A stretch of 64,000 bases of DNA from a virus (Duplodnaviria > Heunggongvirae > Uroviricota > Caudoviricetes). Location: the IMG/VR virus record IMGVR_UViG_3300029488_000242, one strand, 5' to 3'. Positions 464 through 60,494 of the stretch are shown here, piece by piece; position 1 is the stretch's first letter, and each line of letters begins with the position of its first letter. Made by a program: the position numbers and the translations under genes. The notes beneath the pieces were generated by a model. It was given only the letters and a program-made list of their open reading frames with translations. It had not been told where the DNA came from and searched no databases.

Positions 464-527
464 GAGAACATATACATATAAAGCTGCACTATCAGGCTAT
501 ACGGGTAACAGAAAGGAAGTGAGATTT

Positions 528-725
528 ATGCATAATTTTAGAAAGTCAAAGCGAATGCGTGACTTTGATATAGTTTTACGGAAGAATGGATATACACCGA
601 CAAGGTGCAAGGGAAGTCATTTCGTGTATATCAATCGTACAACGCATAGGATAATGCCTGTTAATAAGGATCTGAATGACATGGTAAGGCAGCGATTGAT
701 TAAAGAGTATAACTTGGAGGTGTAA
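528..725 (+). CDS. hicA: HicA-like (YcfA family) mRNA-interferase toxin domain protein
   Basis: 65 aa; motif DFDIVLRKNGYTPTRCKGSHFVYIN...IMPVNKDLNDMVRQRLIKEYNL matches HicA consensus (GSH motif); RBS gaaaggaag upstream of ATG 528. Confidence 0.6.
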   Translation: MHNFRKSKRMRDFDIVLRKNGYTPTRCKGSHFVYINRTTHRIMPVNKDLNDMVRQRLIKEYNLEV

Positions 726-32484: not shown

Positions 32485-32557
32485 ATAGCTGTGGTGAAGT
32501 GGTCAACACAACAGATTTTGATTCTGTCATTCGTGGGTTCAAATCCCACCAGCCTAG
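32485..32557 (+). tRNA. tRNA-Gln(TTG)-like sequence; D-arm to 3' end canonical, 5' acceptor strand does not pair (probable partial/pseudo-tRNA)
   Basis: anticodon stem acaga/tctgt with loop ttTTGat; T-arm gtggg-ttcaaat-cccac; aligns with Bacillus tRNA-Gln from position ~10; 5' strand atagctg cannot pair with cagccta. Confidence 0.45.
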
Positions 32558-39904: not shown

Positions 39905-40115
39905 CCAAAAAAGTAACAAGAAATATTTTTTTCTTTATTCTCTGTCAAAATCCTTTAATCTACAGAGATTGCGCAATCATTTATCCTAGAATTTACTGTT
40001 AAACCCTTTCTTCTTAATTATTTTGTTGTAAAATCCTATGGAATTAACACGTCTGCTAAAACCATAGGAAAAAAATAATTATTGTGAGTTAAATGTATTA
40101 AGTTTATGCGATGGT

Positions 40116-41039
40116 ATGTCATGTGGACACATTGCATTAGAGAAAGCAGGATTTAATGTTGGTAAATATTTTGCATCAGAGATTAAGGACGTGGCAATTA
40201 AGGTAACAAGAGACAACTATCCTGAGACAATTCACATTGGAGATGTGAACAAGATTACATATAAAGATGGTGTATTACATACAGAAGTCGGAGACTTTGA
40301 AACAGATATTGATATTGTAATGTTTGGTAGTCCTTGTCAGAGTTTTTCAAGAGCAATGATTAAAGAGAGAAAGATTGGTCTTGAAGATCCAGAACGTTCA
40401 GGTCTGTTTTATGAGTGCAATAGAGTATTGAAAGAAGTAAATCCAAAGTATTTCCTTATGGAAAATGTAGTGATGAAACCTGAAGATGAAGCCGTTATTA
40501 GTGAAATGATGGGAGTAAAACCTATCAGAATCAATTCTTCTCTTGTAGTAGGACAGCTTAGAGATAGATATTATTGGACTAATATTCCAGGAGTAACAGT
40601 TCCAGAAGATAAAGGAGTTACTTTACAAAGTGTACTCAATGATGGATATGTACCAAACGAGAAAGCAAAATGCCTTTGCAAGAATGATTCTCACGGATAT
40701 TACAACGGCTGTTTTTGGACACCAATTAAGAGGTTTCACAGATTCTATTATAAGTCGTTTGGAACAATGGTGTTCCCATCGAAAGAGTATTTTGATAACT
40801 GTTTAGAGGTTACAAAGAGAATATTAGATGGAAGAAAATCTTCTGCAAAAATCTATGATGATTACAATGGTCATGATTTTGATGAAGCAAGATATTTATG
40901 GAAAGAAGAGAGAGCAAGATTGCAAGGAGTTCCAGAAGAATATGTAGAAAATATGACTGAAAAAGATGCGGCAGATGTTCTTGGTGATGGTTGGACTGTA
41001 CCTGTAATCGCACACATTTTCAGTTTTATGAAATTTTAA
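40116..41039 (+). CDS. DNA (cytosine-5)-methyltransferase; motif I continues in-frame upstream of the only ATG with no start codon available (N-terminus unresolved)
   Basis: GSPCQSFS (motif IV), ENV (motif VI), motif I ...LNVLSLCDG|MSCGHIALEKAGF split by the ATG; in-frame TAG at 40065-40067. Confidence 0.75.
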   Translation: MSCGHIALEKAGFNVGKYFASEIKDVAIKVTRDNYPETIHIGDVNKITYKDGVLHTEVGDFETDIDIVMFGSPCQSFSRAMIKERKIGLEDPERSGLFYECNRVLKEVNPKYFLMENVVMKPEDEAVISEMMGVKPIRINSSLVVGQLRDRYYWTNIPGVTVPEDKGVTLQSVLNDGYVPNEKAKCLCKNDSHGYYNGCFWTPIKRFHRFYYKSFGTMVFPSKEYFDNCLEVTKRILDGRKSSAKIYDDYNGHDFDEARYLWKEERARLQGVPEEYVENMTEKDAADVLGDGWTVPVIAHIFSFMKF

Positions 41040-47450: not shown

Positions 47451-47498
47451 ATACTATATATAGTGTTTATAGAAAATATAGACACTATATATAGTAAT
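47451..47498. promoter_or_regulatory. paired palindromic boxes atACTATATATAGTgt-N15-acACTATATATAGTaat
   Basis: seen in sequence; ~31-bp centre-to-centre. Confidence 0.6.
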
Positions 47499-49021: not shown

Positions 49022-49353
49022 TAAATAAATGATATTACAAAAGACATAGTAAACCGAAGTTTCTTTGGAGTTAGGAGGTAGAAATAGCAAATTTAAATTT
49101 AGAAGATTTTAGTGAAGAATACAGAAAAACAGCACCAATGGAATGTTCTTTGTATTTAGTTTCTTGTTTAGATAAAGATACACAAACGCAGTTAAAGAAA
49201 GATTGGAATGAAGCTGGTGGTGTTAAAGTAATTCCATATTGGAAATGGTGTATGGAACATATTGATGTAATCTATCACAAATAAGAGAATAATACATTGA
49301 AAGGAGCGAGAGATTTGCTGCAGCATTAAATCTGGATTTGCTCTGAGTAAGAA

Positions 49354-50229
49354 ATGTTAGAGATTAACAAAATATACAATGAAGATTGCCTTGAAGGTAT
49401 GAAAAAGATTGATGATAAATCGGTCGATTTCATCTTCACAGATCCACCTTATAATACGACTAATAATTCTTGGGAATGTGAAATGCCGTTAAATGATTAT
49501 GTCGAGTTATCAGGACAATATTTCTATGAAACAGATCTATTTAATTTGGCTCAAGTAACAAATAGTAGTCTTGAGTATACAAGAGATTGGTTTTATGAGA
49601 ACAAAAAAGATGGTTTATGGACTCATTACAATCGAATTATCAAAGATAATGGTTGCATTGCATTATGGGCGCAATCACCATTTGATAAGAGGCTCGCTTG
49701 TAGTAATGAAAAGCTATATCGCTATGAATGGATTATCGAAAAGACCAAAGCAACTGGTCATCTAAATGCAAAGAAAATGCCTATGAAGGCACACGAAAAT
49801 GTCTTGATTTTCTATAAGAAACTCCCTACATATAATCCACAAATGACAGAAGGACATACGCCTGTTCATTCTTATACAAAGCATACGACAGATGGTAACT
49901 GTTATGGTGCTACAAAGACTGGTATTTCAGGTGGTGGCAGTACACAAAGATATCCAAGAGATGTTCTGCAGTTCAAGTGGGATACTCAGAAAAGTAGCTT
50001 ACATCAGTGCCAAAAGCCTGTTGAAGCGTGTGAGTATTTTATTAAGACATATACCAATCAAGGAGATTTAGTTCTTGATTCATGTGCAGGAAGTTGTACA
50101 ACTGCAATTGCAGCTTTAAATACAGGTAGAAATTACATATGTTTTGAGAAAGATAAGGATATTTTTGAGGTTGGAAGTAAGAGAGTAGCTGAATATGCTA
50201 ATCAAGATTTGTTGATGAGTGCTACATAA
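49354..50229 (+). CDS. beta-class DNA amino-methyltransferase (N6-adenine or N4-cytosine)
   Basis: DPPY (motif IV) near N-terminus, motif I DSCAGSCTT near C-terminus. Confidence 0.75.
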   Translation: MLEINKIYNEDCLEGMKKIDDKSVDFIFTDPPYNTTNNSWECEMPLNDYVELSGQYFYETDLFNLAQVTNSSLEYTRDWFYENKKDGLWTHYNRIIKDNGCIALWAQSPFDKRLACSNEKLYRYEWIIEKTKATGHLNAKKMPMKAHENVLIFYKKLPTYNPQMTEGHTPVHSYTKHTTDGNCYGATKTGISGGGSTQRYPRDVLQFKWDTQKSSLHQCQKPVEACEYFIKTYTNQGDLVLDSCAGSCTTAIAALNTGRNYICFEKDKDIFEVGSKRVAEYANQDLLMSAT

Positions 50230-50272
50230 GAAGCAATAAAGAAATCTTTCATGTGAAGATTGGAGGTAAACA

Positions 50273-50488
50273 ATGGGTAAAATTAGTAAACAGACATTTA
50301 TTGTAGAAGTTGCAACTGATAAAGATTCTTTTGAAGATTGGTTAGCAGAGAAGTGTTCAGAAATTTATAATATGGCAATTGATGATTTTATGGAAGCTAT
50401 TGACGAAGAGGATAGAGACGAATGCTTAGTTGATGATATGAAAAGAATCGAAGAATTAGCAGAAAAGGTTAAAGGAAGTAGAGAATAA
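50273..50488 (+). CDS. hypothetical acidic protein
   Basis: ORF track; RBS ggaggt. Confidence 0.4.
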   Translation: MGKISKQTFIVEVATDKDSFEDWLAEKCSEIYNMAIDDFMEAIDEEDRDECLVDDMKRIEELAEKVKGSRE

Positions 50489-50552
50489 TTAACTAAATAA
50501 TACGAAAGGAGTGAGTGGCAGCCTTAAAGATATATCGCTCTGAGTAGATTAA

Positions 50553-51284
50553 ATGGTATATCAAGGAAGTAAAAACAGGTTGGCAAAATTTTTAGTGCCG
50601 ATTATTCAGAAGTATATTGATGATAATAATATTAAAACTTACATAGAGCCTATGTGTGGTGGAGCTAATCTTATTGATAAGATTAAATGTGATAATAGAA
50701 TTGGAGCAGATATTAACGAAGAGTTGATTGCTTTGTTGAAATATGCTCAGATAGACAACGGTTTATCTATTGCACCTGAAGTATGTACATTTGAACATTA
50801 TGCAGAGGTTAGAGAGGACAGAAAACTTGGAACTCATAAGTATTCGCCAGAATATATTGCATTGATTGGATATATGGCAAGCTATGGTGGCAGATACTTT
50901 GATGGTGGTTATGGTAGAGATTCAAAGGGTGGCAGGAGTATTTATAATGAGAGATTAAATAATTTCAAGGAACAAGCACCGAATTTGAATGATATTGAAT
51001 TTATGTGCTGTGATTATAAGAATTTCTCAGATTATAAAAACTGTGTATTTTATTTTGATCCACCTTACAAAGATACAAAACAGTATTCTAAACAGTCAAT
51101 TGACTACGATTCTTTTTACGATTTTCTTCGTAAACTTTCAGAGAACAATATAGTGTTGGTAAGTGAATATAATATGCCTAATGATTTTAAGTGTATTTGG
51201 CAGAAAGAGCGTAAAGTGTTGCAGAAGTCAGATAGAGTAACAGGCGAAAAAGCAGTAGAAAAGTTGTTTGAAATAAGAGAATAA
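50553..51284 (+). CDS. Dam-like (D12 class) N6-adenine DNA methyltransferase
   Basis: YQGSKNRL, EPMCGGA (motif I), DPPY. Confidence 0.75.
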   Translation: MVYQGSKNRLAKFLVPIIQKYIDDNNIKTYIEPMCGGANLIDKIKCDNRIGADINEELIALLKYAQIDNGLSIAPEVCTFEHYAEVREDRKLGTHKYSPEYIALIGYMASYGGRYFDGGYGRDSKGGRSIYNERLNNFKEQAPNLNDIEFMCCDYKNFSDYKNCVFYFDPPYKDTKQYSKQSIDYDSFYDFLRKLSENNIVLVSEYNMPNDFKCIWQKERKVLQKSDRVTGEKAVEKLFEIRE

Positions 51285-51303
51285 ATATCTGGGAGGTGAC
51301 AAT

Positions 51304-51693
51304 TTGATAGAACCACAGTTTTGTGTTGTAGAGGAATTAATATCTATGGAATATATGGACAGAAGTGTTTTAATCCTATATCCATATGAACTTAGCAATG
51401 AACCAATATTAAAAGACAATATTCCAAAAATGACAAAAGTGATAAGAGAATATATAAAAGAGTCTGAAATGTATAGCAAGTGTGTAGATACAATTCCAAA
51501 TCTTATATGGGATTCTCAAAAAATATCTATGCAAAATGAAGCTGATGAACATCAAAGAAAAGCTGATGAACTTGCAAAAATAATGAATGAAGGTATCAGC
51601 CCTTATGCATGGTATGTCAAAGGTAGGTTTAATGGAGAGATAGGTGGGTTTCATTATAATGTAGATAATATAGTTTATTTGGATAGAAACTAA
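51304..51693 (+). CDS. hypothetical protein (TTG start)
   Basis: ORF track; RBS ggaggtg. Confidence 0.4.
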   Translation: MIEPQFCVVEELISMEYMDRSVLILYPYELSNEPILKDNIPKMTKVIREYIKESEMYSKCVDTIPNLIWDSQKISMQNEADEHQRKADELAKIMNEGISPYAWYVKGRFNGEIGGFHYNVDNIVYLDRN

Positions 51694-51812
51694 CAAGAAA
51701 TTTTGGTTTCTTGGCTTGTCACGAAACTAAGTAACAATGTAGATATAATTTTATAAGAAAGGAAAACGTTCACATGTGAGTAAAGCTGCGCAGCTACTAT
51801 TGGTGAACAAAT

Positions 51813-52649
51813 TTGAAAAATACATATATTAAATCGCCTCTAAATTATATCGGAGGCAAGTATAAGTTACTACCAATCATTGTACCAATGTTCCCAGATA
51901 AGATAAATACTTTTGTGGATTTATTTGGTGGAGGTTTTAATGTTGGTATTAATGTAAATGCTGAACATATTATCTATAATGATATATGCAAGCAGGTAGT
52001 TGGTTTTCTAAGATATTTACAAGGTTCAAATATTGAAGAAGTGTTACAGAAGATTGATTCATATATTGATAAGTATGAATTAACAAAAGAAAATAAAGAA
52101 GGATATTTACTGTTTAGAGAAGAATATAACACAGGTATCAAAGATCCAATTAAATTCTATACGCTTTTATGTTATGCGTTCAATAATCAAATCAGATTCA
52201 ATTCCAAAGGTGAATATAACATGCCTTTTGGCAAAGATAGATCAAGTTTTAACCCCACTCTTAGACAAAAATTTATAGATTTTCATAAGCGACTGAATGA
52301 AATAGATTGTAGTTTCTTAAATATTCCATTTGAGAGATTTGATTTTTCTGATTTTATGGAAGGTGATTTTGTTTATGCAGATCCACCATATTTTAATTCT
52401 GTTGCTACATACAATGAAAACGGTGGTTGGACAGAAGAAATGGAGAATAAATTATTAGAGACTCTTGATACTTTAAATGATAAAGGCGTTAAGTTTGCAT
52501 TGAGTAATAATCTCAAATATGACAATCCATTACTTGATAAATGGAAAGATAAATACATAGTTCATTATTTAAAGCATGATTATAGCAACTGCAATTATCA
52601 GAAAAAGGACAGGAGTGCCGATTGTGAGGTATTAATTACAAATTATTAA
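51813..52649 (+). CDS. dam: T4-Dam-like N6-adenine DNA methyltransferase (TTG start)
   Basis: NYIGGKYKLL, FVDLFGGGFNVG, DFVYADPPY; layout and several blocks align with phage T4 Dam. Confidence 0.8.
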   Translation: MKNTYIKSPLNYIGGKYKLLPIIVPMFPDKINTFVDLFGGGFNVGINVNAEHIIYNDICKQVVGFLRYLQGSNIEEVLQKIDSYIDKYELTKENKEGYLLFREEYNTGIKDPIKFYTLLCYAFNNQIRFNSKGEYNMPFGKDRSSFNPTLRQKFIDFHKRLNEIDCSFLNIPFERFDFSDFMEGDFVYADPPYFNSVATYNENGGWTEEMENKLLETLDTLNDKGVKFALSNNLKYDNPLLDKWKDKYIVHYLKHDYSNCNYQKKDRSADCEVLITNY

Positions 52650-52742
52650 AATCTCAATCTCTGAAATGCCTTAAAATCAAGGCTTCAGAGGTTGGAAAAA
52701 CACAGTAAAACCACGTTTCATTGGTTAGAAAGGAGAATTTGA

Positions 52743-53147
52743 ATGGGATGCGAAGTAATAGAATATGATCCGTTAAATTTACAAGAAGAATATCAATATA
52801 TGGCAAAAGATATGAATGGAAAATATATCATTGGGTGGGTTGCAATCGAAAAACCTTGGTACTCACCTGAATCAGCATGGACATATTATATTATTAAAAA
52901 TAATTATGGTAGTAATGGATTTTATGGTGGCTGTACTGATTTAGGATTTGAAAAAATCATTGTGGATAGCAGTACGATAGAACCATATAACCAGATTGGG
53001 AAAATTAAATACAATCAGTCTATAAAAATTGACACAAAAATTGTCAAAGAGATGAATTTTTTAGACGAGGCAAAAGAAGAATTGGTCATCTATATTGGGG
53101 TAGATGATGAAATTCCATATAAGTTGTGGAAAAATCGAATCCAATAA
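52743..53147 (+). CDS. hypothetical protein
   Basis: ORF track; RBS aaaggaga. Confidence 0.45.
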   Translation: MGCEVIEYDPLNLQEEYQYMAKDMNGKYIIGWVAIEKPWYSPESAWTYYIIKNNYGSNGFYGGCTDLGFEKIIVDSSTIEPYNQIGKIKYNQSIKIDTKIVKEMNFLDEAKEELVIYIGVDDEIPYKLWKNRIQ

Positions 53148-53243
53148 AGAAGCATTTCCTGTTAATTTTGTCTAAGAGCATTTCTACACACGGTTTTCCA
53201 AAATAAAAAAGAGAGAATAACTAAATATAAGGAGGTATAGAAC

Positions 53244-53501
53244 TTGCATATAAGAATTGTTGGTTTTAGCGACAGATATGATGATTATAAACTTCTTGGA
53301 TATACAGAAGTAGAGAATATATCAGAAGTTTTTAAGACGCTAGATTATATGAGAAAGAACGAAATTCCATTAATAATCAATACTAATGATGTCATTGATA
53401 CAGACGGAGAAGAATATTACATAGATAGTATTACAATGGTATTCCCAAAAGTGAGTGGTGAGATTGGAAGTTGTATTACTGTTTATGTGGAAGATGTTTA
53501 G
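53244..53501 (+). CDS. hypothetical protein (TTG start)
   Basis: ORF track; RBS aaggaggt. Confidence 0.4.
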   Translation: MHIRIVGFSDRYDDYKLLGYTEVENISEVFKTLDYMRKNEIPLIINTNDVIDTDGEEYYIDSITMVFPKVSGEIGSCITVYVEDV

Positions 53502-53513
53502 AAGGATAAAGAT

Positions 53514-53996
53514 ATGAAAATAGAATTGATTAGATTAAAATTTAATGGCACTCATTCGTACAAGTATAATCCATTTAAGCATTGCTGTGATGAAATTCAG
53601 AAGGATAAAACTATTGTATTTACAGGTGAAGATATAAATGATATTGGTGGAGAATATGAAGATGATGGCATCTATATTCCACAATTTTGTACTTCCTATA
53701 CACAAACAGTTGGTTCTTGGGAGGACGAATGGGAGCAGACAGACAATTTTCCAATTAAATTCTGCCCTCATTGCGGTGAAAAGATTGAGATTTCAGTTGT
53801 AGATAAGATTGATGTATCTGATAAATATGAAGAATTAACTAAGCAGCGTGATGAATTATGGGAGAGGTGTCAGAGAACAGATAGTAAGAAGAAAGAATCT
53901 GAACTAAGAGAGCAGGTTGGAAAGCTTGATAAGCAGATTGACAGTTTCTATTGGTTGGATGAGTGGAAAGGAGAATATTATTATGGCAGTATTTAA
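53514..53996 (+). CDS. hypothetical protein with zinc ribbon
   Basis: ORF track; CPHCGEKI. Confidence 0.45.
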   Translation: MKIELIRLKFNGTHSYKYNPFKHCCDEIQKDKTIVFTGEDINDIGGEYEDDGIYIPQFCTSYTQTVGSWEDEWEQTDNFPIKFCPHCGEKIEISVVDKIDVSDKYEELTKQRDELWERCQRTDSKKKESELREQVGKLDKQIDSFYWLDEWKGEYYYGSI

Positions 53997-54258
53997 AAAT
54001 TTTAAAGATGATGAATTGATTGTAAGTTGTAAGTGTGGATGTGACGAAGGTATTCATTTTAAAATTCATGATTATGGAGATGGCGACTATGCTTTCTTAT
54101 CATATACAAATGGTAACTTTTACACTCAGCAAAGACCATTCTTTGAAAAATTGAAGAAGATTTGGGCGATTATTATTAATAAGGATTTTTATTATTCTGA
54201 TATTGTGCTTACAAAGGAAGATTTTAAAGAGTTTAAGGAATGGATTAATAGAAAGTAA
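53983..54258 (+). CDS. hypothetical protein
   Basis: ORF track frame 53917..54258; ATG overlapping previous 3' end. Confidence 0.4.
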   Translation: MAVFKNFKDDELIVSCKCGCDEGIHFKIHDYGDGDYAFLSYTNGNFYTQQRPFFEKLKKIWAIIINKDFYYSDIVLTKEDFKEFKEWINRK

Positions 54259-54269
54259 AGGAGATTGCT

Positions 54270-54470
54270 ATGAATAGAAATTTGGATGGATATTATTTTA
54301 GAGTTAAAAGAGATGGAAAATGGGACAATGTTTGTTGGTCTGATATGACAGATGAAGAAAGAGACGAGCAAATGACTAATCGTAGTGAAGAATGGTTAAA
54401 GTCGCTATGTAAGGGACTTGGTAATGTTATTCATAAGATTGGTGAAGATTTAGATATTGCGTGTGAATAA
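54270..54470 (+). CDS. hypothetical protein
   Basis: ORF track; RBS aaggagattg. Confidence 0.4.
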   Translation: MNRNLDGYYFRVKRDGKWDNVCWSDMTDEERDEQMTNRSEEWLKSLCKGLGNVIHKIGEDLDIACE

Positions 54471-54531
54471 AAGTAAATTCAGGATTTTTTTGAATGAAAA
54501 GAGAGAATATTAAAGCAAGGAGGTAAGAAAA

Positions 54532-55182
54532 ATGTCGTATTGGACATATATTCAGGGTACAATAACAGTTCGTCCTATGGGTAGAACACAGCCTGAGAAG
54601 AGATATATTCTTGAAACAGTGTTAAACCATTTGCCTAGAGTGACAGGTTCTGAAGGGGACATGAATACATATATCATTCAGAAAAATGGTCATAACAGTT
54701 CGTGTTCATGTGATGAATTTGGTGAAGTGACAAATAATTTAACTGATTGGTACGGTAATAAAAGTCATACTAGAGGAGCATTGAGAACGCAAGACGAATA
54801 TATCCTTGTTGTAAATGCAGCTTTAAGAGACAGAGAATTTGAACAGACTTACAGAGAATTTATGAAATGGTTTGTACGACTTTGCAAGAGAGTAGGCTGT
54901 GAAGATGTTCTTGTAGAAATCAAAGGATATAATAAGTCAACTGTTATCAAAGATAGAAATATTCAGAGAAAAAAGTATTCGTTTAAGAGTGTTTTCGATG
55001 GCTTATTTGAAAATCCAAGCTGGTGCAACGACAGTAAAGATGGATACAAAGAGCCGAACTGGTGTGAATTTATGATGTGGGACAGAGCAAAAGATTCTAA
55101 CTATCCTATGACTCTTGCTTACAAATATTTCAACGATGAAGAAAATGACAAGGAAGTTGAGAGAAGAATGAGTTATAGATAA
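54532..55182 (+). CDS. hypothetical protein
   Basis: ORF track; RBS aaggaggtaag. Confidence 0.5.
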   Translation: MSYWTYIQGTITVRPMGRTQPEKRYILETVLNHLPRVTGSEGDMNTYIIQKNGHNSSCSCDEFGEVTNNLTDWYGNKSHTRGALRTQDEYILVVNAALRDREFEQTYREFMKWFVRLCKRVGCEDVLVEIKGYNKSTVIKDRNIQRKKYSFKSVFDGLFENPSWCNDSKDGYKEPNWCEFMMWDRAKDSNYPMTLAYKYFNDEENDKEVERRMSYR

Positions 55183-55229
55183 TTTCAAAAGAAAGCAACA
55201 TATCATTGGATTTAGAAAAGAGGTATCAA

Positions 55230-55526
55230 ATGGATGATTATAAAAAGCTAATTGATTCAACCGAATTACAGAAAACAGTATTGAATTTCATTGGTTCTGA
55301 AGAATTTAATAAGATGGTCAATTGTTCAATATTCAAGGATAATCAAGAGTGCAAATCTGCTATTATTTACGGAATGTCGATCGCATCAATGTTGGTCTGT
55401 GATTGTACCCCATTTTATATTAAATTTAATGAAGAAACTGATGAAAATAATAATAGACCACAATGTTGCATAGACCATGACAAATATTTTTCAACATGTG
55501 ACACTTGTGAGTTTGGAGGTGATTAA
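55230..55526 (+). CDS. hypothetical Cys-rich protein
   Basis: ORF track frame; RBS agaggt. Confidence 0.4.
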   Translation: MDDYKKLIDSTELQKTVLNFIGSEEFNKMVNCSIFKDNQECKSAIIYGMSIASMLVCDCTPFYIKFNEETDENNNRPQCCIDHDKYFSTCDTCEFGGD

Positions 55527-56003
55527 GTGTTAGTACCTGCAATTTTATATAAAGAACAGATTAAGAAAGAATTTCAGAAATATTACTATACAACAGATAT
55601 GATGTATGAAACAGGTTGTATGTGCAATTGGAGCCCTGAAATTGCAGAATGTCCAAACGAGAGTCAATTCCAATATGCAATAGTTGATAAGAACGAAAAA
55701 CTCGTTGGCTATTTAGGATATTCAGTAGATTGGTATGTGTCTAAAGCGTATAATTTTGGATTATTTTCATTCGACAGAGGAAATATCTTGGTTGGAAGAG
55801 ATGTATTCAATAAATTAGAAGAATTGATTAAAACATTACATAGAGTTGAATGGAGAGCTGTTGGTGGCAATCCTGCTTGTAGAGGTTACGATAGCTTTAT
55901 CGAGAGACATAATGGAACGAAACATGTTCTGAAAGATTCAATTAAGGATAAGAATGGTGAGTATCACGATGATTTTATTTATGAGATTGTATCATCGCAG
56001 TAA
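55527..56003 (+). CDS. hypothetical protein, possibly GNAT-like acetyltransferase fold (GTG start)
   Basis: ORF track; weak GNAT-like pattern ...LHRVEWRAVGGNPACRGYDSFIERHNG. Confidence 0.4.
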   Translation: MLVPAILYKEQIKKEFQKYYYTTDMMYETGCMCNWSPEIAECPNESQFQYAIVDKNEKLVGYLGYSVDWYVSKAYNFGLFSFDRGNILVGRDVFNKLEELIKTLHRVEWRAVGGNPACRGYDSFIERHNGTKHVLKDSIKDKNGEYHDDFIYEIVSSQ

Positions 56004-56141
56004 ACCAATCTTTCATTGGAAAATTTTTAATCATATCTAAGCCATTCGGCTACGGGAATCCCAGTAAATAAGAGAATAACTAAATGAAAGGAGTATGAGG
56101 TTTGGTATACCATAAAGAATTCTTTACTCTGAGTAAATTAA

Positions 56142-56873
56142 ATGAATTTTGACAAAATTGACGATAAAAAACATCTGATTTTTAACGAGAATGCAATGGA
56201 TGTTCTTAATTTAATGATTGAAAAAGGTAAGAAAGTCGATATGATTTTCACAGATCCACCATATAAAATTACTGCTCGTGGTAATGGCGGTAATTCAGGT
56301 GGAATGTTTCAGAAAAAAGAAGTAAATAATGGCAAAGTTTTCAAAACTAACGATTTAGAAATTGAAGATTGGTTGCCAAAATTCTATGAAGTTCTTAAAG
56401 ATAATTCCCATTGTTATATTATGACGAATAATAAAAATATTACACATTATCTTGATGTTATTGACAAATCTGATTTTCATTATATTAAGTGTCTTATTTG
56501 GGTTAAAGATAACAAAATTATGGGACAAACATATATGAGCCAGTTTGAATACATAATTATGCTAAGAAAAGGTGCTCATAAGAGAATAAATAATTGTGGA
56601 ACAAGTGATGTGTTACAGATTTCAAATAAAAAGATGAAAGATAGAAATGGCAAAACAGTTCATGATACTGAAAAGCCAGTAGAACTTACAGATATCTTAA
56701 TCGGAAACTCATCTAATGATGGTGATACAGTGTTTGATCCATTTATGGGAATTGGTGGTTGTGGTGTAAGTGCTGCAAAGTTAAACAGAAAATTCATTGG
56801 TTGTGAACTAGATGAAAAATATTATGATATCGCAAAAAATAGAATTACTGAACAATGCAACATATCGCAGTAA
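56142..56873 (+). CDS. beta-class DNA amino-methyltransferase (N6A/N4C)
   Basis: MIFTDPPYK early, HDTEKPVEL, motif I VFDPFMGIGGCG late. Confidence 0.75.
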   Translation: MNFDKIDDKKHLIFNENAMDVLNLMIEKGKKVDMIFTDPPYKITARGNGGNSGGMFQKKEVNNGKVFKTNDLEIEDWLPKFYEVLKDNSHCYIMTNNKNITHYLDVIDKSDFHYIKCLIWVKDNKIMGQTYMSQFEYIIMLRKGAHKRINNCGTSDVLQISNKKMKDRNGKTVHDTEKPVELTDILIGNSSNDGDTVFDPFMGIGGCGVSAAKLNRKFIGCELDEKYYDIAKNRITEQCNISQ

Positions 56874-60446: not shown

Positions 60447-60494
60447 ACACTATATATAGTGATTAGATGGATTAAAACTACTATATATAGTGAC
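60447..60494. promoter_or_regulatory. two palindromic boxes acACTATATATAGTga-N15-actACTATATATAGTgac
   Basis: seen in sequence. Confidence 0.6.

Follow-up and report, generated by a model that had tools for sequence, protein, structure and literature searches.

A portable leader with a putatively masked SD box precedes DNA methylase genes of unrelated Firmicutes phages

Introduction

The 64-kb stretch of phage DNA analysed here (the window) carries several DNA methyltransferase genes that a sequence-only reading had described as a battery sharing one conserved 5' leader, and it had proposed that this leader is a post-transcriptional control element timing an anti-restriction arsenal. The locus thus raises the question of what the leader is and what it does to the genes behind it. 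We found that it is a portable module: in Firmicutes phages that are unrelated to one another it stands before numerous DNA methylase genes, themselves unrelated, and before some genes for nucleases or modification enzymes; it is most plausibly a cis-acting mRNA element of 45-55 nt. The reading that we favor, with a probability of about 0.45 and thus a little short of even, is that it would be a portable device that clamps or attenuates the translation of risky genes that act on DNA and are traded horizontally.

Results

The pattern GAAAGGAG-N(27,33,34)-CTCTGAGTA has exactly three matches in the 64-kb window, all on the + strand (49299-49349, 50504-50546 and 56086-56135); it was absent from 100 dinucleotide shuffles, chance expectation is none, and CTCTGAGTA has no exact copy in the 64 kb outside these three. 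Each match lies immediately 5' of the ATG of a Pfam-confirmed DNA methyltransferase gene (Table 1) and ends 4, 6 and 6 nt before it in copies 1, 2 and 3, and these ATGs have no SD of their own except a bare GAG. The shared leader, the SD-less starts and the palindromes claimed for the middle segments are therefore all present in the window. Two details needed correction: the spacing of 41-48 nt is that from GAAAGGAG to the ATG (47, 41 and 48 nt in copies 1, 2 and 3), not that from GAAAGGAG to CTCTGAGTA, and the tail (A/G)(A/G)(A/T)TAA holds in two of the three copies but not in the remaining one. Our covariance model R1 scores copy 1 at 64 bits (E=2e-15) and copy 3, the nearest to the general consensus, at 63.6 bits (E=3e-15; nhmmer E=4e-10). 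The shorter copy 2 reaches 18 bits (E=0.01) with a match confined to the outer helix, and its GGAGUGA can be read as complementary to UCGCUCU. Copy 1 is predicted to fold into a rod in which GGAGCGAG pairs with UUUGCUCU; the predicted fold stability of the window's three copies is not better than that of shuffles (z -0.1 to +0.8). No sigma-70-like promoter was found inside or beside the leaders, and no + strand terminator beside them.

Table 1. Positions of the leaders, their parts and the methylase genes in the window.
Feature	Position	Strand	Sequence, basis or remark
Decayed leader 3' end before C5 methylase	40070..40115	+	TTATTGTGAGT, aligned to TTACTCTGAGT of intact C5 leader
C5 cytosine methyltransferase ORF	40116..41039	+	Pfam PF00145, E=1.7e-28; profile begins at position 14
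Leader copy 1, type T1	49299..49353	+	exact pattern match; palindrome listing; fold prediction
Copy 1 SD box	49299-49306	+	GAAAGGAG
Copy 1 palindrome P1	49316-49325	+	TGCTGCAGCA
Copy 1 palindrome P2	49328-49339	+	AAATCTGGATTT; centre U.G
Copy 1 anti-SD strand	49340-49344	+	GCTCT
Copy 1 GAGTA	49345-49349	+	then spacer AGAA, ATG 49354
Beta-class N6/N4 DNA methyltransferase, 291 aa, behind leader 1	49354..50229	+	N6_N4_Mtase, Pfam PF01555, E=3e-25
Leader copy 2, type T2, shorter	50504..50552	+	exact pattern match
Copy 2 SD box	50504-50511	+	GAAAGGAG
Copy 2 odd palindrome	50517-50523	+	GGCAGCC
Copy 2 palindrome	50529-50536	+	GATATATC
Copy 2 GCTCT	50537-50541	+	
Copy 2 GAGTA	50542-50546	+	then GATTAA, ATG 50553
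Dam-like (D12) N6-adenine methyltransferase, 243 aa, behind leader 2	50553..51284	+	Pfam PF02086, E=7.5e-15
Sister leader, type Q	51757..51812	+	fold, palindromes, conservation
Type Q GAAAGGA	51757-51763	+	
Type Q GTTCAC	51768-51773	+	overlaps palindrome TCACATGTGA 51770-51779
Type Q palindrome	51784-51795	+	AGCTGCGCAGCT
Type Q real SD	51802-51808	+	GGTGAAC; TTG start 51813
T4-Dam-like D12 methyltransferase, 278 aa, TTG start, behind type Q leader	51813..52649	+	PF02086, E=2.9e-36
Leader copy 3, type T6	56086..56141	+	exact pattern match; palindrome listing
Copy 3 SD box	56086-56093	+	GAAAGGAG, then GAGGTTTG
Copy 3 palindrome P1	56103-56112	+	TGGTATACCA
Copy 3 palindrome P2	56113-56126	+	TAAAGAATTCTTTA
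Copy 3 CTCT	56127-56130	+	
Copy 3 GAGTA	56131-56135	+	then AATTAA, ATG 56142
Beta-class N6/N4 DNA methyltransferase, 243 aa, behind leader 3	56142..56873	+	PF01555, E=2.6e-33

The leader of the T4-Dam-like gene, which had been taken for a fourth relative, is missed by both the family HMM and R1 and belongs to a separate conserved family, type Q. At least 120 viral contigs have a leader of this family; the gene that follows always starts with TTG and encodes one of several different NPPY/NPPF/DPPY methylases or a PAPS-reductase-like protein. In the window's type Q leader GUUCAC has two possible partners, its own palindrome or the SD GGUGAAC, and the predicted fold (-12 kcal/mol) pairs it with GUGAAC; GGTGA, 5 nt before the TTG, would thus be an SD masked at functional spacing (~5-10 nt), an arrangement that the window's three copies, at 41-48 nt, do not have. 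The C5 methylase gene had also been counted among those with the leader, and what we found there is a decayed 3' remnant that has lost the SD box and the palindromes; the conserved N-terminus NVLSLCDG no longer has a start codon. This ORF is probably 5'-disrupted, as its translation has no in-frame start before one that falls within motif I.

Beyond the window, many phages of Gram-positive gut hosts carry the modular leader; more than 200 viral contigs have it, among them ~150 kb gut phages, the Enterococcus faecalis Phifelvirus prophages phiFL1A and phiFL3A, in which it is the 55-nt gap 5' of a methylase gene, and a Clostridium scindens phage. The window's own motif retrieved the architecture from at least 119 viral contigs and the anchor GAGGTTTGGTCGACC from at least 120, and the T2 type (anchor AGTGGCAGCCTTAAAG) occurred in 71. 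Conservation in related phages, which had been proposed as a test, thus extends to unrelated ones, and the notion of an arsenal particular to this phage falls away: ~90% of the 178 distinct products behind the leader are methylases (classes C5, D12, N6_N4 and N6_Mtase), and the remainder are GIY-YIG/HNH/NUMOD homing-endonuclease-like proteins, PAPS reductases, a sigma factor and a few others. Leader and gene form cassettes that occur in tandem and are reshuffled, and the leaders of one genome differ in their palindromes. Such a spread across unrelated genes and unrelated Firmicutes phages makes it most likely that the leader is served by host machinery (probably the ribosome) and not by a factor of the phage. 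It is not among the Rfam families: at the gathering threshold the whole window yielded tRNA only, and in scans of three leaders at permissive E-values the best scores were 9-18 bits, against gathering scores of 39-102.

In the general layout the stop of the upstream gene precedes a strong SD box, (A)AAGGAG, followed after 1-5 nt by GAG(G/A)UUUG and a palindrome, P1; 2-5 nt later come a second palindrome, P2 (AAA-N4-7-UUU), the box (A/G)CUC(C/U), ~9 nt and an SD-less start codon. An unbiased anchor gave ACTCC(T) as the general 3' box, which is complementary to GGAGT. CTCTGAGTA is merely a local spelling of the general ACUCC box, and CUCY mimics the anti-SD tail of 16S rRNA. Judged by its pairing statistics, a covarying helix, H1, joins the SD box to the CUCY box; it encloses the whole leader and ends ~9 nt before the start codon, the usual position of an SD:anti-SD helix (CUCY to start codon, mode 9 nt; 82 of 101 within 8-11 nt). 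In 57 distinct sequences, in an alignment whose H1 and stems had been fitted to the model, pairing is 97.4% versus 87.6% in shuffles and at most 56% in slid controls, with a covariation score of 0.333 versus 0.149 that 0 of 500 shuffles reached; the pair adjoining GGAG/CUCY is UA in 31, CG in 12 and UG in 6, so the covariation proposed as a test was found at this pair. Because GGAG and CUC never vary, the GGAG:CUC pairing itself rests on conservation and the neighboring pairs, not on covariation. Cognate 5' and 3' strands pair over longer stretches than non-cognate ones (permutation p=0.0008), and the non-Watson-Crick pairs on the sense strand are ten G.U and no A.C. In Enterococcus leaders AAAGGAGUGGA pairs with UUUACUCCUUU over 11 bp, and the folding of the Enterococcus and ACUCC versions beats shuffles (z -2.1 to -2.5). 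When 72 leaders were folded as ensembles within their native context, the predicted median unpaired probability of the SD was 0.05 and P(SD:anti-SD) was 0.81, with the start codon ~0.59 unpaired; the SD is thus predicted to lie in an RNA helix whose flanking pairs covary. The box that had been called too distant to serve the ATGs is indeed far from them, but it is also one strand of a helix whose partner mimics the anti-SD.

These properties bear on three readings other than a clamp. The leader could be a split (discontinuous) RBS of the kind known from T4 genes 38 and 25, one that raises translation through a folded insert bringing GAAAGGAG near the ATG: covarying structure fills the long interval, the ATGs lack an SD of their own, removal of the insert leaves what reads as a canonical RBS (e.g., GAAAGGAG-TAAATTAA-ATG), and the T4 hairpins shorten such spacings from 22 to 5 nt and from 27 to 11 nt (PMC3014915). 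We nevertheless consider this unlikely: the T4 SD is single-stranded, whereas here a conserved CUCY is complementary to an SD predicted to be almost always paired, and even if only GGAG:CUCY opened, the spacing would be 4 nt plus the modal 9, i.e., 13 nt or more, which exceeds the ~5-11 nt of the T4 type but is conceivable. A stabilizing or processing signal, either a STAB-SD-like landing pad for 30S or a 5'-end hairpin shielding a cleaved methylase cistron from 5'-exonuclease, would accord with GAAAGGAG, which matches the STAB-SD type of an SD far from any start (for which PMC12970973 offers a precedent), and with a stable predicted rod at a cistron start within a long operon; but a STAB-SD must be free for 30S, and neither the narrow 9-nt spacing nor the conserved CUCY would be accounted for, which makes this reading improbable. 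Finally, the SD box could drive a short ORF from the UUG of GAGGUUUG, 7-8 nt downstream, whose termination re-initiates on the methylase. The spacing to the UUG is ideal, an ordinary gene of the window shares this 5' half and has ATG in place of the UUG (AAAGGAAGTGAGATTTATG, 510-529), and in the most frequent Enterococcus form stop and ATG overlap (ATGA). Among 81 distinct leaders, however, the stop comes early in 25, adjoins the start in 20 and lies past or in frame with it in 23, no better than in the other two frames, and types T2-T5 have no UUG; we regard such a relay as highly improbable, and as a conserved feature the short ORF is largely refuted. Translational coupling, one of the mechanisms initially suggested, thus finds no support in the form of a conserved upstream ORF, and a shared cis element, most plausibly acting at the RNA level given the covariation and the sense-strand-only G.U pairs, is what stands of that suggestion.

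The palindromes are a separate matter. P1 and P2 are complete over 8-14 bp, with variable 6-bp cores between constant arms, and they are self-complementary through the very center with many compensatory changes. In each hairpin the four positions expected to form the loop, which the model had left unpaired, are complementary: pairing reaches 99.1% for columns 29-32 and 30-31 and 91.1% for columns 54-57 and 55-56, with many double changes (CG 32, GC 17, AU 5; GC 18, AU 16, UG 9, CG 5, UA 3) and exceptions that are sense-strand U.G. Directly neighboring bases are unable to pair with each other in a monomer, and the symmetry goes beyond what a monomer hairpin can explain. One could envision the palindromes as the functional core of a new class of cis-regulatory RNA in which two copies of a leader pair through self-complementary hairpin tips, as a kissing or domain-swapped homodimer, with the SD:anti-SD helix formed in trans. 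In five of six leaders the predicted homodimer is 13-19 kcal/mol better than two monomers, as compared with 7 +/- 3 for shuffles, and the different palindromes within a genome imply that no cross-pairing is expected. If this were so, methylase and endonuclease mRNAs would be translated or would decay according to their own concentration, a dose-dependent self-control, and every leader variant in a genome would have a private 'address'. The cofolding gain is, however, a trivial consequence of palindromy, only ~3 independent wobble events favor RNA over DNA at the center, and dimerizing bacterial mRNA leaders have no known precedent; we hold both the dimer and the RNA class that it would define to be doubtful.

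The same palindromes could instead be symmetric duplex sites for dimeric proteins of the restriction-modification world, whether as a methylation-sensing operator, for autoregulation or as restriction-targeted recombination handles that swap methylase cassettes. Their completeness, their variable cores within constant arms, the tandem, reshuffling cassettes and the near-exclusive association with DNA methylases, nucleases and PAPS reductases would suit such sites. The mapping is many-to-many, however: one leader, with the GTCGAC/GAATTC palindrome pair, stands before 11 protein clusters of four methylase classes, and single clusters carry up to 5 different pairs. GAATTC is not avoided in phiFL1A (16 versus 17.5 expected), leader hexamers are not specially depleted in the window, imperfections are sense-strand G.T and never A.C, orientation to the gene is fixed, and the outer helix needs its G.U pairs. 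Taken together, we judge the DNA-level variants quite unlikely. Autoregulation of a methylase via its own site is not borne out: judged by protein clusters across the four methylase classes, the palindrome does not track the downstream enzyme.

Discussion

In the clamp that we favor, H1 would hold the sole strong SD, and the downstream gene would be translated weakly or conditionally, when the mimic strand gives way to the 16S tail or to a ribosome that comes in from the cistron before. Such a clamp could keep mutagenic or toxic DNA-acting genes at low dose as they are exchanged, independent of genomic context. The two palindromes may be a second layer beside it, and RNA dimerization or a DNA-level reader is possible there.

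Some observations sit uneasily with this model. A simple mask has no obvious ON state, and with H1 open the SD would still be 41-48 nt from the ATG, or ~13 nt with the inner domain folded. Complete palindromes are neither required nor accounted for by a clamp.

Among known systems, HIV-1 DIS and other palindromic-loop RNA dimers resemble the leader hairpins in having self-complementary loops whose core varies by lineage yet stays palindromic; unlike the leader, retroviral dimerization hairpins are packaging signals of genomic RNA with 6-nt loop palindromes, and we know of nothing comparable in bacterial or phage mRNA leaders. Integron attC sites are likewise short, variable in sequence and conserved in structure, with palindromes between promoterless, reshuffled cassettes and inverse boxes at the ends. 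The leader, however, goes with the gene downstream of it, has SD and anti-SD as its conserved boxes and lacks the R''/R' core sequences (RYYYAAC/GTTRRRY), and no integron integrase was seen. The STAB-SD of Bacillus thuringiensis cry3A is also a strong SD-like box in a Firmicute 5' leader far from the start (PMC12970973), but it is single-stranded and binds 30S near a processed mRNA 5' end, whereas the leader's box is predicted to be paired. T4 genes 38 and 25 share with the leader a long SD-AUG spacing bridged by conserved structure (PMC3014915); they leave the SD free, their insert is about half as long, and the leader's residual spacing is at least 13 nt.

The SD- or AUG-sequestering hairpins of T4 (e, soc, 49, I-TevI, mobE and segB) likewise place an SD within a cis RNA helix, on phage genes that are harmful if untimely or in excess, including free-standing endonuclease genes (PMC3014915). 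They offer the clamp its precedent, since hairpins masking the SD limit the endonuclease genes I-TevI, mobE and segB in a comparable way (PMC3014915). The T4 hairpins mask an SD adjacent to the start and are relieved by a late promoter inside the hairpin, whereas here the masked SD is distant, the start codon is SD-less and no sigma-70-like promoter was found inside or beside the leaders. Unlike the T4 hairpins, moreover, the leader is a conserved, portable module of unrelated phages and carries two complete palindromes.

Results

A leader shared by three methylase genes

The pattern GAAAGGAG-N20..48-CTCTGAGTA has exactly three matches in the window, all on the + strand, and matched in 0 of 100 dinucleotide-preserving shuffles of it. 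Because each exact copy precedes, by 4–6 nt, the ATG of a methyltransferase gene confirmed by Pfam (see table), the shared 5′ leader described in the sequence-only reading is real for these three genes. CTCTGAGTA by itself has three exact copies in the window, all within the leaders, and an upstream stop codon lies 14–15 nt 5′ of the leader in two of the three. The spacing of 41–48 nt given in that reading is correct as the distance from GAAAGGAG to the ATG (47, 41, and 48 nt) but not as the gap to CTCTGAGTA, and its statement that the ATGs have no Shine-Dalgarno (SD) sequence of their own is borne out, as they carry a bare GAG at most.

Coordinates of the leaders and of other features in the window
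Feature	Position	Strand	Start codon	Remarks
Leader copy 1	49299-49349	+	ATG at 49354, after 4 nt	N6_N4_Mtase (Pfam)
Leader copy 2 (short type, T2)	50504-50546	+	ATG at 50553, after 6 nt	D12 class methyltransferase (Pfam)
Leader copy 3	56086-56135	+	ATG at 56142, after 6 nt	N6_N4_Mtase (Pfam)
Type Q leader	51757-51812			Before T4-Dam-like gene
Long imperfect hairpin	52660-52695			CTCTGAAATGCCTT...AAGGCTTCAGAGG; without T-run; directly 3′ of T4-Dam-like methylase gene
C5 methylase (gene at 40116)	40068-41039			Decayed 3′ leader remnant
Palindrome (C)ACTATATATAGT(G), first pair	47453-47464; 47484-47495			Intergenic
Palindrome (C)ACTATATATAGT(G), second pair	60448-60461; 60480-60491			Intergenic
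Weak covariance-model match	513-569			Rejected
Small ORF	527-725			MHNFRKSKRMRDFDIVLRKNGYTPTRCKGSHFVY...
tRNA gene	32488-32553			Rfam RF00005, 53 bits
AGAGAATAA, examples of exact copies	49284, 50480, 51276, 53212, 56071, 58063, 63159

Across the window, AGAGAATAA has 117 matches with at most one mismatch (66 ± 8 expected), almost exclusively on the + strand, about 24 of them exact. It often provides the stop codon of an ORF, 6–15 nt 5′ of the next SD or just 5′ of a terminator, and, given its mixed contexts (gene ends, before terminators, inside ORFs), may be a gene-end signal, a promoter element, or a codon habit. The tRNA gene is the sole Rfam match in the window.

Distribution and modularity

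The sequence-only reading had proposed looking for the leader in related phages, and it is conserved there. In IMG/VR, the window pattern is present in at least 119 contigs; the internal anchor GAGGTTTGGTCGACC, which leaves both leader ends unconstrained, in at least 120, many of them prophages of 35–40 kb; and an anchor specific to short T2 leaders in 71. True copies of the window pattern, most of them from gut UViGs of ~150 kb, have a long ORF starting 0–10 nt after them, which cleanly separates them from chance matches. By BLAST, the prophages are Enterococcus faecalis Phifelvirus phages (phiFL1A, phiFL1B, phiFL1C, phiFL3A, phiFL3B, and EFC-1), in whose records the leader is a 55-nt stretch that carries no annotation, with a small ORF on one side and a “DNA methyltransferase” gene on the other. 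The leader also occurs in one Clostridium scindens phage. Among the matches listed for the window motif in bacterial genomes, most were due to chance and two loci (L201 and L222) looked real; megablast of an 8 kb region against INPHARED phages gave no match.

Among the matches listed, the downstream genes encode 178 distinct proteins in 47 clusters. By Pfam, or by catalytic motifs read from the sequence where there was no Pfam scan, ~90% of these proteins are DNA methylases (C5, D12/Dam, T4-Dam-like, beta N6/N4, and gamma N6_Mtase), the remainder being GIY-YIG/HNH/NUMOD endonuclease-like proteins, a CoiA-like protein, PAPS reductases, one sigma factor, and one zinc-ribbon protein. Because, among these matches, one identical leader (GTCGAC/GAATTC) stands 5′ of 11 different protein clusters and a single cluster has up to five different palindrome pairs upstream, the leader is a module that recombines at both flanks. 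E. faecalis prophages often carry two tandem leader-gene cassettes ~800 bp apart with differing palindrome pairs (e.g., locus L305, at 522-568 and 1319-1364; also L298, L324, L307, and L322), ordered GTCGAC/GAATTC first and GCGGCCGC/AAGCTT second, which gives the look of a cassette array.

Anatomy and the SD:anti-SD helix

From the unbiased anchor, the leader reads upstream stop - N0-15 - (A)AAGGAG - N1-5 - GAG(G/A)TTTG - P1, followed by N2-5 - P2 (AAA-N4-7-TTT) - (A/G)CTC(C/T) - ~9 nt - start codon, P1 and P2 being two palindromes; CTCTGAGTA is merely the local spelling of a general ACTCC box. The 5′ purine strand is complementary to the 3′ strand, which resembles the 16S 3′ tail (CCUCCUUU), and the Enterococcus versions of the two strands, AAAGGAGUGGA and UUUACUCCUUU, form 11 bp. 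The distance from the CUCY box to the start codon has a mode of 9 nt (8–11 nt in 82 of 101), and this narrow spacing places the end of the outer helix (H1) where an SD:anti-SD helix usually lies.

A covariance model built from 14 sequences recovers all three copies of the window, as well as 71 leaders from 67 sources. The alignment of leaders and test for covariation suggested by the sequence-only reading gave, over 57 distinct sequences, 97.4% paired cells as compared to 87.6% in shuffles and a covariation score of 0.333, which 0 of 500 shuffles reached, as compared to 0.149 in shuffles; slid controls were at most 56% paired. The pair adjoining GGAG/CUCY is UA in 31 of these sequences, CG in 12, and UG in 6, and is unpaired in 6. 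Because this alignment was fitted to the covariance model, we also ran a model-free test, in which the 5 nt after GGAG paired further with their cognate 3′ partner than with those of other leaders (permutation p = 0.0008). Non-Watson-Crick pairs within the helices comprise 10 sense-strand G.U and no A.C, which supports sense-RNA pairing over duplex-DNA symmetry.

When 72 distinct leaders were folded as ensembles in native context, the median predicted SD:CUCY pairing probability was 0.81, with median unpaired probabilities of 0.05 for the SD, 0.00 for the CUCY box, and ~0.55–0.59 for the spacer and start codon. The predicted stability of the window's own copies is not above that of shuffles (z −0.1 to +0.8); that of ACUCC versions is (z −2.1 to −2.5).

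Several other readings of the leader were rejected. A conserved upstream ORF or leader peptide would keep its frame and stop, and neither is kept; for a mini-ORF from the UUG of GAGGUUUG in particular, stops are scattered and no better placed than in other frames. The junction strand lengths resemble those of a hammerhead-like three-way junction, but by eye the CUGANGA/GAA core is missing, and Rfam gave no match. No sigma-70 promoter was found inside or beside the leader, nor a terminator. The weak covariance-model match near the window's 5′ end is the ordinary RBS and ATG of a small ORF and no leader; this RBS, AAAGGAAGTGAGATTTATG, echoes the leader's 5′ half except for an ATG in place of the UUG, and by eye the ORF looks like an mRNA-interferase toxin of the HicA type.

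Palindromes that covary through their centres

P1 and P2 are perfect palindromes of 8–14 nt in nearly every variant, each with a variable 6-nt core within constant arms (TG...CA and AAA...TTT, respectively). The cores include CTGCAG, GTATAC, GTCGAC, TCCGGA, GCGGCCGC, TGTACA, GAATTC, AAGCTT, CAGCTG, ATGCAT, and GACGTC, among others. The four would-be tetraloop columns of each palindrome are unpaired in the model, and the alignment is hence unfitted there; nevertheless 99.1% of cells in these columns are complementary in P1 (innermost CG 32, GC 17, AU 5, UA 1) and 91.1% in P2 (innermost GC 18, AU 16, UG 9, CG 5, UA 3). A monomer hairpin cannot pair two neighbouring nucleotides, so complementary centres require either pairing between two copies or a dyad-symmetric reader of DNA.

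Some of the evidence leans towards pairing between two RNA copies, possibly as a homodimer or kissing complex. The handful of imperfect centres carry U.G on the sense strand, leaders within one genome always differ in core, and predicted homodimers are better than two monomers by 13–19 kcal/mol (7 ± 3 in shuffles), although this gain already follows from palindromy. Alternatively, the palindromes could be sites for a dyad-symmetric reader on duplex DNA. In its restriction-modification form, this explanation meets several difficulties. The many-to-many mapping of leaders to genes led us to reject the palindrome as the downstream methylase's own site, and the palindrome as a restriction-avoided site kept only in the leader is not supported, as GAATTC has 16 occurrences in phiFL1A where 17.5 are expected. 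Leader hexamers show no special depletion in the window (GTATAC 10 vs. 10.8 expected; CTGCAG 2 vs. 6.2), nor are long perfect palindromes enriched window-wide (68 vs. ~95 simulated).

As a separate observation, palindromic hexamers as a class are depleted across the window (896 vs. 1126 expected), with GTTAAC (0 vs. 12), ATCGAT (0 vs. 10), GTGCAC, TAGCTA, and GGATCC absent and CAGCTG present once (10 expected), which looks like restriction-site avoidance despite five methylase genes. The palindrome (C)ACTATATATAGT(G) occurs as two intergenic pairs 13 kb apart, with member starts separated by 31–32 bp, resembling paired operator sites for one putative dimeric regulator.

A sister leader and a decayed copy

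The sequence-only reading had counted the leader of the T4-Dam-like gene as a related fourth copy, but the family's models do not match it: it is a separate, conserved, and modular leader (type Q), present in at least 120 contigs and reading GAAAGGA - N - GTTCAC overlapping TCACATGTGA - GTAA - AGCTGCGCAGCT - ACTA.. - GGTGAAC - N5 - TTG. It precedes several NPPY/NPPF/DPPY methylases and a PAPS-reductase-like gene. GUUCAC is predicted to have two possible partners, its own palindrome and the true SD, GGUGAAC, which precedes the TTG by 5 nt. By this predicted pairing, type Q is a classical SD mask that may also adopt an alternative fold. Because it too has two complete palindromes, it is a sister family. 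A long imperfect hairpin lies directly 3′ of the same gene (see table).

Neither does the C5 methylase gene share an intact leader, as had been supposed, since only a decayed 3′ remnant is left. The gene itself is likely 5′-disrupted or decaying, judging from its sequence: there is no in-frame start for the conserved N-terminus (NVLSLCDGMSCG), and the first ATG lies inside motif I.

Discussion

We show that a portable phage leader contains a conserved helix between a strong SD box and an anti-SD mimic, ending 9 nt short of a start codon with no SD of its own. In kind, folding predictions make it a cis-regulatory leader that masks its SD. No Rfam family matched it at the gathering threshold or at permissive E-values, and full-text literature searches on the motif and on methylase leaders of the phiFL phages returned nothing relevant. 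What is new is the placement of an SD:anti-SD-mimic helix as far from an SD-less start codon as an SD would be, the portability of the module across unrelated phages, its tie to DNA-modification genes, and palindromes that covary through their centres.

Phage-borne orphan methylases are a main escape route from restriction and are constantly traded between phages. Here, one portable leader is common to small temperate Enterococcus phages, a Clostridium phage, and gut phages of ~150 kb, and its sharing across all methylase classes and some homing-endonuclease-like genes points to a common, host-ribosome-based control that travels with the genes. The leader is easily testable in phiFL1A and phiFL3A, both of which can be cultivated; it also offers a handle by which to find methylase cassettes in metagenomes and is a candidate new Rfam family. 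Its centre-covarying palindromes fit no standard hairpin logic and could reveal RNA dimerisation in mRNA control or a reader at the DNA level.

A module that is carried between unrelated phages in this way most likely depends on universal host machinery. Our preferred reading is that H1 would clamp the SD, such that translation of the downstream gene would be weak or would depend on displacement of the mimic strand by the 16S tail or by ribosomes arriving from the upstream cistron. The weak point of this clamp is its ON state, as a freed SD would still lie ~13 nt or more from the ATG. A split RBS, as in T4 genes 38 and 25, and a STAB-SD-like stabiliser are both weakened as alternatives because the SD is itself predicted to be paired. 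A clamp would suit genes that move constantly into new contexts and whose excess is mutagenic or toxic, and T4 limits I-TevI, mobE, and segB by the same logic (PMC3014915).
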